From: Puniceicoccales bacterium
GTDB taxonomy: Bacteria > Verrucomicrobiota > Verrucomicrobiia > Opitutales > JAIRLM01
Assembly (NCBI GenBank): GCA_031281635.1
Contig: JAITFC010000101.1
Coordinates: 1-38,502 of the forward strand
Direction of reading: 5' to 3'
Length of the DNA: 38,502 bases
In this document: positions 35,960-38,502 of the stretch, piece after piece
Layout of the letters: the number at the start of each line of letters is the position of its first letter
Position numbering within the stretch: position 1 is the stretch's first letter
Position numbers and translations under genes: made by a program
The notes under the pieces: generated by a model
Seen by the model: only the letters and a program-made list of their open reading frames with translations
Told to the model about the DNA's origin: nothing
Database searches by the model: none

Positions 35960-38502
35960 GTGAACGTAGGGCGCGACCTTCCCTCAGCGCAACCGTATCA
36001 TGCTGCTACGCAGAAGCAGATTGCTCTTGAAATAGAAGGGCTTAAGTTGTGTTGCAGGGATCTTGCAGGACTTAACTTCGACGATTTGGCAGAAGCAAGA
36101 AAAAAGCCTGGCGATATTAGCGAAACTGTGTTCCATGCTGCAGCGAATATGCTAATAGCCCTTAACGCGGACAAAAATATTTCTTTTTCAGAAAAAAACG
36201 AAGTCGTGCAATTGTTTAACGGTTTATTTGCAAATCTTAGTCGGTGTAACAGTTCCGACGATCCACTGGAGTGTGCTTTAAAATTTTTCAACAACGTAAA
36301 CTCTTTTGTTGAAAAAGTGTATGCTAATTCTTCCGACAAGTCGATTCAGGCATTAATTGCAATCGCGCATCGGTCTTTGCAAATTTTACAACCAAAAGCA
36401 TTAACTAGCAATAATGCTGCTCAATATAGAGAGATATACAATAAATTACATTGGTATGGGTGCACTGCATTTGCTCGAGAGAATTCATTAGACCTGTCGC
36501 AATATGGTACACCAGTCGATGGACAAAAAATGATCGTGATTGACTTCACGCAGCAGCTTACATTTACAACAACTGGTAAGATGCATGCAAATCCAGATGA
36601 TATGCAAGCATTCTCTCATGTGTCTCTCGATTCTTCAGGTTGTATAAGTACATCGCAAATTCGGCAATATGGAACGCAATGTTGTTTTGTTGCGCCATTT
36701 CTAACAGACAGTCCACCCCAAAGAATGTTTTCAGATGCTGCTGTATTGGCACTGCATCTTAAACGGGATAAAAGCCTAAACAAAGATGAAGTGGAGAAAT
36801 GCAGACTAGCGATAGCAAAACTACCACCGCATATGCTTGAAATTTATCGAATTCTTGCAGAAAGAATTGATATCTCTGCAGTAGCGCCATATCTTGTACA
36901 ATGTGTAGAAAAAGGTGATGTTGAAATTGTCGAGATTACTGTAAGTTTCCTGGAGAACATTTTACACAATCCTAAATTATCTAATGGTTCTGAATTATCT
37001 AATGGTTCTGAAGTGAAAGCAGGATTTAATGTTCTGGAGTGCATACGAAGATTGGAAGCGCATAACGTCGATGATCACGGCAGCCGTATTGCCTCTTTGA
37101 AAGCTGAGGCAGCGCGTATCGTCGCTTCACCGGAGATTCCGATGTCGGATGATCAAGTGAAAGCTCCCCTTAGTAAATATTCCATTCCTCAGCAGCATAT
37201 AAGCCAATTAAACGATCAGTCGACTCAGTGGCAATGGATGCGCTATTTCATAGGACATCTATTTAGCAGAATTGATAGGTTCGAGCTTGATCACACGCTT
37301 AAGAATAATCTTCTTAACAGTATCTTTGACGCTCTCAATCGTGGCACGGGCGCTTCAAATGCTGCGGATTATCTCCAATATATTTTAATAAAGTATGGCG
37401 AAAAATTTCCCCCTAGTGAGAAGGAAAACATAGGAAAGTTTCGCAATTTAATGCTTTATTTGGCTGCAGCCAATCAAGAATCACAACCAGCTCCAGCACC
37501 AGCTCCAGCACCAGCACCGGCTCAAGTACGAACACCAGCAAATGAACAATTGGTAGAGTTTTTGCGGGAAACGTTGGCAAGCGCTCCGGAAGGCGATGAT
37601 GGGGCGGCCGTTATGCGTGTTCTAACGGACAGTAATCAGCATTGGAAGGAGGCACTATGTCCCTTCTTTGAAGATATTGACAGTTCGAGAAAAGCAGATG
37701 CAGTAGTATGGATATTGCGACTTCTTAGGGGTGCATTAGATGCAAATAAAGTATCTTGCGATGATGTGTCCGATTTTTGCACTTTCCTGGAGTCCCTGCA
37801 TGCCATAAAAACGAAAAAATCATTTGCTCGAAAATTGTCGAATGCATGCATTTCATTGAAGTGGCATAGCCGTTTCGAAAAACTTATGCAGGCGATTGGC
37901 AAAGACTCTTCAGATCCGCCACCCCATGCTATTCCTGACGAAATTTCTTCTGATGAATTTGCTGCTGCCCAGAAGTATGTAGGAAGACATTTGGAGTATG
38001 TGTTGGCGCACCCAGATGATGTGCGTTTCTTGCTCGAAACCATTAAAAATGAACGAAGCGAGGCTGTATTAAAAGAAATATTGTCATCTATTAGGGAAGC
38101 ATTAAATGCTGGTACAGTATCTTGCGATTTCTTGCTTGGTTTTCTCGTTCCTCTGCAATCGTTGGAATCCCCACAATGGTTTAGTAAAGAATTAAATTCT
38201 GTGATTGCAGATATAACGTTGCAAAAGCTTTTACAGACGATAGGCGAAGACTCTTTAGATCCGCTGCCCCACAGTATTTCTGCCAACATCGAGGAGATTC
38301 AGAACTATATAAACAAACATGCGTCTTTCGCGCTGGGACACATGGAGTATGTACATTTATTATATAAATGCAATATTGGTGATAATCAAAAAATATCAGC
38401 AGTCGTAAGACAAATCAAATCATTGAATTGGCATCTCCATTGGCAAAAAGTTTTGGATAAAATAAATCTGACCGGTCAAATCATTTCGCCAGATTTTTCT
38501 TC
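35960..38502 (+). CDS. Large repeat-containing hypothetical protein, 3'-truncated by the window edge (at least about 847 codons)
   Basis: I translated this codon by codon. The + frame with codons at positions equal to 2 mod 3 has no stop from upstream of 35960 to 38502. It is absent from the ORF track because no stop lies in the window. The earliest promoter-compatible start is GTG 35960, and the first in-frame ATG is at 36149. It contains recurrent modules, a (PA)6 linker and an LSNGSE duplication. It is AT-rich: nt 36361-36420 give 23/60 and nt 38041-38100 give 20/60 G+C. Confidence 0.75.
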   Translation, partial: MNVGRDLPSAQPYHAATQKQIALEIEGLKLCCRDLAGLNFDDLAEARKKPGDISETVFHAAANMLIALNADKNISFSEKNEVVQLFNGLFANLSRCNSSDDPLECALKFFNNVNSFVEKVYANSSDKSIQALIAIAHRSLQILQPKALTSNNAAQYREIYNKLHWYGCTAFARENSLDLSQYGTPVDGQKMIVIDFTQQLTFTTTGKMHANPDDMQAFSHVSLDSSGCISTSQIRQYGTQCCFVAPFLTDSPPQRMFSDAAVLALHLKRDKSLNKDEVEKCRLAIAKLPPHMLEIYRILAERIDISAVAPYLVQCVEKGDVEIVEITVSFLENILHNPKLSNGSELSNGSEVKAGFNVLECIRRLEAHNVDDHGSRIASLKAEAARIVASPEIPMSDDQVKAPLSKYSIPQQHISQLNDQSTQWQWMRYFIGHLFSRIDRFELDHTLKNNLLNSIFDALNRGTGASNAADYLQYILIKYGEKFPPSEKENIGKFRNLMLYLAAANQESQPAPAPAPAPAPAQVRTPANEQLVEFLRETLASAPEGDDGAAVMRVLTDSNQHWKEALCPFFEDIDSSRKADAVVWILRLLRGALDANKVSCDDVSDFCTFLESLHAIKTKKSFARKLSNACISLKWHSRFEKLMQAIGKDSSDPPPHAIPDEISSDEFAAAQKYVGRHLEYVLAHPDDVRFLLETIKNERSEAVLKEILSSIREALNAGTVSCDFLLGFLVPLQSLESPQWFSKELNSVIADITLQKLLQTIGEDSLDPLPHSISANIEEIQNYINKHASFALGHMEYVHLLYKCNIGDNQKISAVVRQIKSLNWHLHWQKVLDKINLTGQIISPDFS
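36977..37012 (+). repeat. Perfect 18-bp tandem duplication inside the large ORF (TTATCTAATGGTTCTGAA x 2, encoding LSNGSE-LSNGSE)
   Basis: Read directly: 36977-36994 equals 36995-37012. The duplication is in frame. Confidence 0.95.
37487..37522 (+). repeat. Hexanucleotide CCAGCN repeat encoding (Pro-Ala)6 linker
   Basis: The sequence ccagct ccagca ccagct ccagca ccagca ccggct is in frame within the large ORF. Confidence 0.9.

Follow-up and report, generated by a model that had tools for sequence, protein, structure and literature searches.

The DNA analysed here, referred to as the window, is an entire contig of 38,502 bp (JAITFC010000101.1, Puniceicoccales bacterium assembly GCA_031281635.1), and the object of this study is orfX, a long open reading frame (ORF) that lies at its 3' end on the plus strand and runs off the assembly. 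The contig does not close into a circle, and orfX is not continued at its left end. Translation of the three plus-strand frames placed the last in-frame stop at 35816-35818, in the frame phased with 35801, and showed the sequence to be stop-free from 35819 to the final base. The earliest in-frame start codon, GTG at 35960, yields 847 visible codons. The features recognised in orfX and in the DNA directly upstream, with M0 to M3 standing for protein repeat units, are listed below.

35849..35886, plus strand: intrinsic terminator consisting of a 12-pair stem (35849-35877), a 5-nt loop and a T-run.

35925..35952, plus strand: sigma-70-like hexamer pair TTGTAA-16-TAAAAT, matching at 9 of 12 positions.

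35960..38502, plus strand: orfX, partial coding sequence of an orphan protein, starting with GTG at 35960, 847 codons, truncated by the contig end.

35960..37189, plus strand: N-terminal part of the protein, residues 1-410, predicted to be mostly helical, Cys-containing, modelled with a low predicted local distance difference test score (pLDDT), and including a non-helical, low-confidence segment at residues 181-250.

36509..36733, plus strand: residues 184-258, with a resemblance to the calmodulin EF-hand pair (1ahr, expectation value (E) 1.4, not significant).

36975..37012, plus strand: perfect 18-nt tandem duplication encoding LSNGSE twice (2.1 copies, 100% matches, DNA repeat family D5).

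37190..37474, plus strand: M0, residues 411-505, possible degenerate copy of the C-terminal unit (z 4.1 and p ~3e-3 against M2).

37486..37540, plus strand: low-complexity Pro-Ala linker, (PA)6 with its flanks, residues ~509-527 (period 6, 9.2 copies).

37667..38032, plus strand: M1, residues 570-691, with five helices predicted and with the conserved Pro-rich loop IGKDSSDPPPHAIP.

38033..38368, plus strand: M2, residues 692-803, with 36% identity to M1 across 109 aligned codons.

38369..38500, plus strand: M3, residues 804-847, shortened start of a third unit, cut by the contig end.

37636..38289, minus strand: antisense ORF of 217 codons with an ATG start, coding score -0.105, no Pfam family.

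An open frame of this length is not expected by chance, the probability of 894 stop-free codons being ~3e-26 given the region's own base composition, and under a codon model trained on the housekeeping genes of the contig the frame of orfX scored best, at +0.018, with none of the other five frames above -0.22. A preliminary description of this DNA had proposed a hidden ORF of more than 840 codons leaving the window, and the 847 codons found here bear this out; the frame was absent from the ORF list available at that stage because it runs off the window end. We regard it as near certain that orfX is the real and intact 5' part of a gene encoding a modular orphan protein. ORF tracks that drop frames leaving contig ends hide real genes, and genes built of repeats break assemblies. 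The position of the start codon is uncertain. Further candidates are TTG 36047, with GAAGGG 6 nt upstream, TTG 36086, GTG 36128 and ATG 36149, and since only weak ribosome-binding sites were found at the other genes of the contig, the start cannot be fixed by this means; TTG 36047 with its GAAGGG is an alternative to GTG 35960.

The C-terminal third of orfX is made up of a unit of ~115-122 residues that occurs at least three times in tandem. The alignment of M1 with M2 scored 144, compared to a maximum of 48 among shuffles, and segment comparisons returned z scores of 20 for M1/M2, 7.2 for M2/M3 and 3.9 for M1/M3. The periodicity is also visible in the DNA, where blocks of 67 and 51 nt with 76% identity recur every 345-366 nt (families D1, D2 and D6) and where a third copy of family D3, opening with ATTGGCAAAGA, lies at 38439 within M3. 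Best kept between the copies are the motif 'AL-x-A-x-x-VSCD', which forms a turn, and the stretch in which the long helix ends and gives way to the Pro-rich loop, 'KL-x-Q-x-IG-x-DS-x-DP-x-PH-x-I'. M1 and M2 share a five-helix pattern in the full-length structure model described below. When a slice covering residues 664-776 (113 residues, overlapping M2) was modelled with the other repeat copies as the alignment, it reached a pLDDT of 73 and a predicted template-modelling score of 0.59, with six helices assigned by DSSP. Searches of this repeat-unit model against solved folds gave best E values of 0.83 in PDB and 0.91 in BFVD, with template-modelling (TM) scores below 0.5. The comparisons between copies show that the C-terminal part of orfX arose by tandem duplication of a new five-helix unit. 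Upstream of the linker, M0 may represent a degenerate copy of the same unit, as illustrated by the alignment of ELDHTLKNNLLNSIFDALNRGT with ERSEAVLKEILSSIREALNAGT.

Internal duplications had been proposed for the protein. The proposal holds past residue ~526, and marginally so from residue 411, and fails in the N-terminal half, where none was found: two N-terminal segments (Na and Nb) show no significant mutual likeness (z 0.4). Repeats picked out there by eye, ALNADKNIS with LHLKRDKSL and LSQYGTP with LSKYSIP, were not significant in the segment comparison and were rejected.

Between M1 and M2, the Nei-Gojobori method gave proportions of synonymous and nonsynonymous differences (pS and pN) of 0.50 and 0.42 and a ratio of nonsynonymous to synonymous divergence (dN/dS) of ~0.74, a rough value, the alignment having been optimised at the protein level. 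Since silent sites are unsaturated and yet the two units share so little protein identity, the sequence is evolving fast. Such fast divergence could by itself account for homologues being undetectable.

With a G+C content of 41.2%, and 34.6% at third codon positions, orfX ranks lowest among 29 genes, the housekeeping genes lying at 49-54%. Measured by dinucleotide relative abundance, it lies at a distance of 120 from the remainder of the contig, compared to 29-73 in 29 other 2.5-kb segments not overlapping orfX, one of which has a G+C content of 42%. orfX is compositionally foreign to its contig. This outlier status points to horizontal acquisition or, less likely, to an assembly mis-join. An AT-rich composition had been noted at the outset and is confirmed; the size of the contrast, put then at 33-38% against 60-67% G+C, was overstated and amounts to 41% against ~50-54%.

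No relative of orfX was found in any collection searched. The whole protein matched nothing in Pfam or NCBIfam at E 10 or lower, and neither the whole protein nor four segments of it matched anything significantly in Pfam, NCBIfam, PHROGs or PADLOC. The sole Pfam match on the segments was fragilysinNterm (E 0.07; 13 bits, where the cut-off is 25), the N-terminal segments gave no Pfam match, and the best PHROG match stood at E 0.04. PDB sequences likewise yielded no significant match. A word-indexed search of 5.8 billion protein clusters returned nothing at E 0.01 or lower; the PA run may have filled the limit of 8000 candidates in this search, a weakness not shared by an exhaustive phmmer scan, in which none of 1.84 billion representatives matched at E 1e-3 or lower. 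A profile built from four repeat copies found nothing among the 5.8 billion clusters at E 10 or lower. At the nucleotide and genome level, peptide-seeded scans of GTDB genomes, JGI metagenomes and IMG/VR, an exact 44-mer look-up in GTDB genomes, and tblastn against plasmids and phages were all without a match. No orfX relative was present in 1.3 Mb of Puniceicoccales/Opitutales loci carrying the neighbouring beta-barrel gene or SecDF, and no paralogue was present within the window. As far as sequence comparison can tell, orfX is restricted to its lineage, and its initial characterisation as unrecognisable stood up in family, sequence and fold searches alike.

The same searches put this orphan status in perspective. 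A control ORF at 22136-23344 (plus strand, ~368-402 residues, G+C 0.449) matched only itself among the 5.8 billion clusters, and it has no relative in GTDB genomes and no Pfam, NCBIfam or PADLOC family. Since at least two singletons occur on 38.5 kb, orphan status alone is no sign of unusual biology and is here largely a sampling effect. Two further ORFs are without a family match: one at ~27300-28769 (plus strand), Cys/His-rich, of ~489 residues, with a low third-position G+C of 0.373 and an uncertain start, whose frame is free of stops from 26619 onwards and which overlaps pgi, encoded on the opposite strand; and one at 325-2088 (minus strand) of 587 residues and normal G+C, for which Pfam, NCBIfam and PADLOC gave no match. 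The earlier view of orfX as the best undescribed candidate of the window is weakened by the singleton at 22136-23344 and by these two family-less ORFs.

The visible orfX protein has a mass of 94.6 kDa, a pI of 5.8 and 2% Cys. Its highest 19-residue Kyte-Doolittle mean is 1.48, no window reaching the transmembrane level, and no hydrophobic stretch follows any of three candidate N-termini (35960, 36047 and 36149) as judged from the sequence, no dedicated signal-peptide predictor having been run. A full-length, single-sequence AlphaFold2 model attained a pLDDT of 45 and was nearly all helical except for residues 181-250; with this model Foldseek retrieved generic solenoids at TM ~0.1, which is uninformative. 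The protein is acidic and soluble, with an all-alpha structure predicted. The (PA)6 linker is flexible and parts the N-terminal portion from the C-terminal repeats. On these points the preliminary description was accurate, having anticipated a helical protein with a PA linker and with neither a signal peptide nor a transmembrane segment.

Two leads within the N-terminal part were followed. In the segment resembling the calmodulin EF-hand pair, the two EF-hand-like loops, DGQKMIVIDFTQ and SLDSSGCISTSQ, both fail the canonical D-x-[DNS]...[DE] pattern. With calcium-ligand positions 1, 3, 5 and 12 mostly replaced and an E of 1.4, the EF-hand reading was rejected; residues 184-258 might match by chance or might form a helix-loop-helix pair that has degenerated. 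By eye, YGC168TAF resembles a papain/transglutaminase-like motif, and H164, D178 and C228 have a spacing like that of clan CE; both are kept as an unconfirmed lead. Cysteine-peptidase motifs in orfX found no support in Pfam or PDB, and the region has a pLDDT below 40. No catalytic signature was detectable in orfX.

The upstream boundary is well formed. The 75-nt stretch 35826-35900, which includes the terminator, has a folding energy of -19.4 kcal/mol (z -2.8), so that the clean terminator initially placed ahead of orfX is real. It closes a beta-barrel-like gene at 34752-35825 and separates it from orfX. The product of that gene, 357 residues with a signal-peptide-like N-terminus and ending in ...SFEFSF, would be an outer-membrane beta-barrel protein. 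TTGTAA-16-TAAAAT, originally put forward as a promoter, fared less well: one site of this type was found and 1.1 were expected from shuffles, which leaves it a possible promoter at a statistically chance-level frequency. The spacer at 35886-35925 is a strongly AT-rich tract, TTTTTTTTGCGCACAAAACGGGAATTTTTTAAAAAATTTTCACAAAAAAC, which could be bent DNA, a UP-like element or a mere composition boundary. No tRNA gene, Rfam element, integrase or flanking repeat was found at or near the orfX boundary.

The remainder of the contig is ordinary chromosome. Its envelope and export genes comprise plsY, a PilT/GspE-type ATPase, murJ, Mur ligases, lolCE/lolD, a fused secDF and a gene for a RodZ-like protein; nth, holA and xth represent DNA metabolism, and rpsB, pgi and two tRNA genes are also present. 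Apart from the PilT/GspE-type ATPase at 3076-4275, no secretion-system gene was found on the 38.5 kb. The SecDF protein is 67% identical to that of a termite-gut metagenome-assembled genome (MAG), 'Puniceicoccales bacterium Po218_bin38', and 44-55% identical to those of the other Opitutia MAGs among the matches listed; the beta-barrel neighbour of orfX (34752-35825) is 47% identical to its Po218_bin38 counterpart. These identities place the host in an unsampled Puniceicoccales (Verrucomicrobiota) lineage, which plausibly comes from an insect gut. Gene order is not conserved between the contig and related MAGs. Verrucomicrobia of the 'termite/Nucleococcus cluster' are protist endosymbionts (PMC8204192). 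Exact look-ups of neighbouring proteins retrieved a 2.6-kb Logan contig from run SRR14710905 that is 100% identical to 32400-35011, and this run contains the same population as the contig. A literature search on the run accession gave no match.

Several other loci of the contig deserve mention. At 20070-21950 (minus strand), a single ORF of 626 residues joins a lipid A biosynthesis acyltransferase domain (PF03279) to a heptosyltransferase domain of glycosyltransferase family 9 (PF01075) and would be a fusion of two lipopolysaccharide-core enzymes. SecD and SecF are fused into 755 residues at 30756-33023 (plus strand), a fusion that recurs in related Opitutia MAGs, whose matches cover residues 33-743. 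Amid housekeeping genes at 24039-25349 (minus strand) lies a PIF1/RecD-like superfamily-1 helicase, 436 residues long. A lower-G+C stretch at 7394-10151 (plus strand, 0.41-0.43), whose dinucleotide signature is no outlier, carries three ORFs: one of 446 residues (7394-8734), a hydrophobic one of 217 residues, and one of 239 residues with a CNFRCPYC motif. Read by eye, this motif suggests a radical-SAM activase and would hint at an anaerobic lifestyle.

Taken as a whole, the account we favour, and to which we give slightly better than even chances, is that orfX is a real orphan gene, acquired and fast-evolving, for a non-enzymatic protein serving in multivalent binding or as a scaffold. The gene would have been gained horizontally, or would evolve very fast, and the contig probably breaks within it since further repeat copies follow. 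Its product, lacking a catalytic domain, would be an elongated protein that shows the same Pro-rich loop motif several times, suited to multivalent binding or scaffolding; if exported, it would take a route independent of a Sec signal. Non-enzymatic multivalent binding appears the likeliest role because no catalytic signature was found and because conservation is highest in an exposed loop that recurs from unit to unit, although a binding role is at this stage a reasoned guess. A number of points weigh against the account. A dN/dS near 0.74 also fits a weakly constrained or decaying gene, and the codon score of +0.018 is far under the +0.22 of the housekeeping genes. The poor full-length model leaves room for a small enzymatic domain within residues 150-260, the C-terminus is missing as it lies past the contig end, and the function is deduced solely from absent catalytic signatures and the repeat architecture. 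Finally, the junction at 35826-35960 is spanned by no independent assembly, the sole piece found, the Logan contig, stopping at 35011. A bolder extension, in which orfX would found an undescribed family of horizontally acquired giant proteins that diversify rapidly, exported Sec-independently by gut- or protist-associated Verrucomicrobia and engaging host or competitor proteins multivalently through the Pro-rich loop shown by each of their tandem five-helix units, strikes us as distinctly unlikely.

Other explanations start from the same observations. orfX might encode an effector that a type III, IV or VI system translocates into a eukaryotic host cell, be it a gut protist or a cell of an animal, in which its repeated helical units and Pro-rich loops would bind host proteins. 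The lack of a Sec signal peptide would suit such a protein, as would its orphan, AT-rich and foreign, modular and fast-evolving character, the termite-gut MAGs that are the nearest relatives of its bacterium, and the precedent of the protist endosymbionts of the 'termite/Nucleococcus cluster' (PMC8204192). We nevertheless consider it unlikely: the secretion genes of the contig are limited to the PilT/GspE-type ATPase, no eukaryote-like or known effector domain was found in orfX by Pfam, PDB and fold searches, the C-terminal region that would bear a type IV signal is beyond the contig end, the contig has a full set of envelope and housekeeping genes, and the presence of a second orphan ORF on it indicates that orphan status is common here. 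A secreted effector, host-interaction or surface protein had been suggested at the outset; of that early interpretation it is the unrecognisable, helical and repeat-containing character that is borne out here, the role itself being putative. A surface protein or adhesin exported by Sec or Tat would carry a hydrophobic N-terminal signal, which none of the three candidate N-termini shows, and its C-terminal anchor or translocator domain (autotransporter barrel, sorting signal) would lie past the contig end. It would be quite improbable, in our estimate, for orfX to be carried by a mobile element, a prophage or a conflict island starting right after the terminator and continuing past the contig end. 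The abrupt change of composition at the intergenic region, the position of orfX at the contig end and its orphan status would fit such an island; however, no significant match came from PHROGs or PADLOC and none from IMG/VR or the phage and plasmid collections, and the boundary shows no tRNA gene, integrase or flanking repeat.

A purely technical origin, in which another, AT-richer organism present in the sample supplied the last 2.6 kb and the join fell in the AT-rich intergenic DNA, would explain the strong dinucleotide outlier at the end of a metagenomic contig, and the only independent piece (SRR14710905) ends before the junction. Such a chimera is highly improbable, as the switch in composition coincides with a well-formed gene boundary, at which a stop codon is followed by a terminator, an AT-rich spacer and a start codon, other lower-G+C genes lie inside the contig, and there is no positive sign of a mis-join. 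We see a very slight chance that the frame is functionless or decaying, belonging to a young or acquired gene under little constraint. The dN/dS between copies, the low codon score and the lack of homologues are consistent with decay, but 2.7 kb of stop-free sequence at 41% G+C would not persist without selection, motifs are kept between units, and the repeat unit has a foldable helical model. As for the minus-strand ORF at 37636-38289, which the preliminary description had entertained as the true product, its 217 codons and ATG start speak for a gene in its own right, beside which the long plus frame would be incidental. Over the same interval the plus frame of orfX scores +0.058, above the antisense ORF, which has no family match either and is for these reasons best seen as a shadow ORF; nor can it account for 894 stop-free plus-strand codons or for in-frame protein repeats. 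We practically discount it.

Expression of orfX, if it occurs, would bring to light a helical repeat unit and an orphan family, both of them new, in a verrucomicrobial lineage that is poorly studied and probably associated with the gut; if its product is exported, it would offer a first lead on how such bacteria interact with host or neighbouring cells. How it stands to known systems may be summarised as follows. Bacterial ORFans are typically short. As with the AT-rich, lineage-restricted ORFan genes of bacteria, reportedly described by Daubin and Ochman (2004) among others, orfX has no homologues, a G+C content below that of the core genes, unusual codon usage and a fast-evolving protein; unlike typical ORFans, it is longer than 847 codons and is built of modules in an ordered arrangement. 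Spectrin repeats, the FIVAR-GA modules of staphylococcal Ebh and the talin rod are rods of tandem alpha-helical bundles, and offer an analogy only: orfX likewise lines up helical units (~105-160 residues in these proteins) that arose by duplication, but it shares no sequence or fold match with them (Foldseek TM <0.5, E 0.8 or higher), its unit has five or six helices as opposed to three in spectrin-like bundles (~106 residues), and, unlike Ebh, its visible part has no signal peptide or Ebh-type anchor. Similarly by analogy only, the Dot/Icm substrates of Legionella are large orphan effectors of intracellular bacteria. orfX resembles effectors of this type in being large, helical, modular and AT-rich or foreign, and in lacking a Sec signal and homologues, and differs from them in having no cognate secretion system on its contig, no eukaryote-like domain and a merely putative host association. 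With the TPR, HEAT, ARM and Sel1 solenoids it shares its predicted all-alpha nature, and its poor full-length model draws just solenoid matches; in contrast to them, it has no Pfam repeat match even at E 10 and a period of 115-122 rather than 34-47 residues. The alignment of residues 184-258 with the two helix-loop-helix motifs of the calmodulin EF-hand pair (1ahr) is a likeness from which the replacement of most calcium-ligand positions detracts. Although the repeat unit and the protein are new, orfX belongs to a familiar type, that of repeat-built orphan genes that evolve fast, were probably acquired and lie at the end of a contig.

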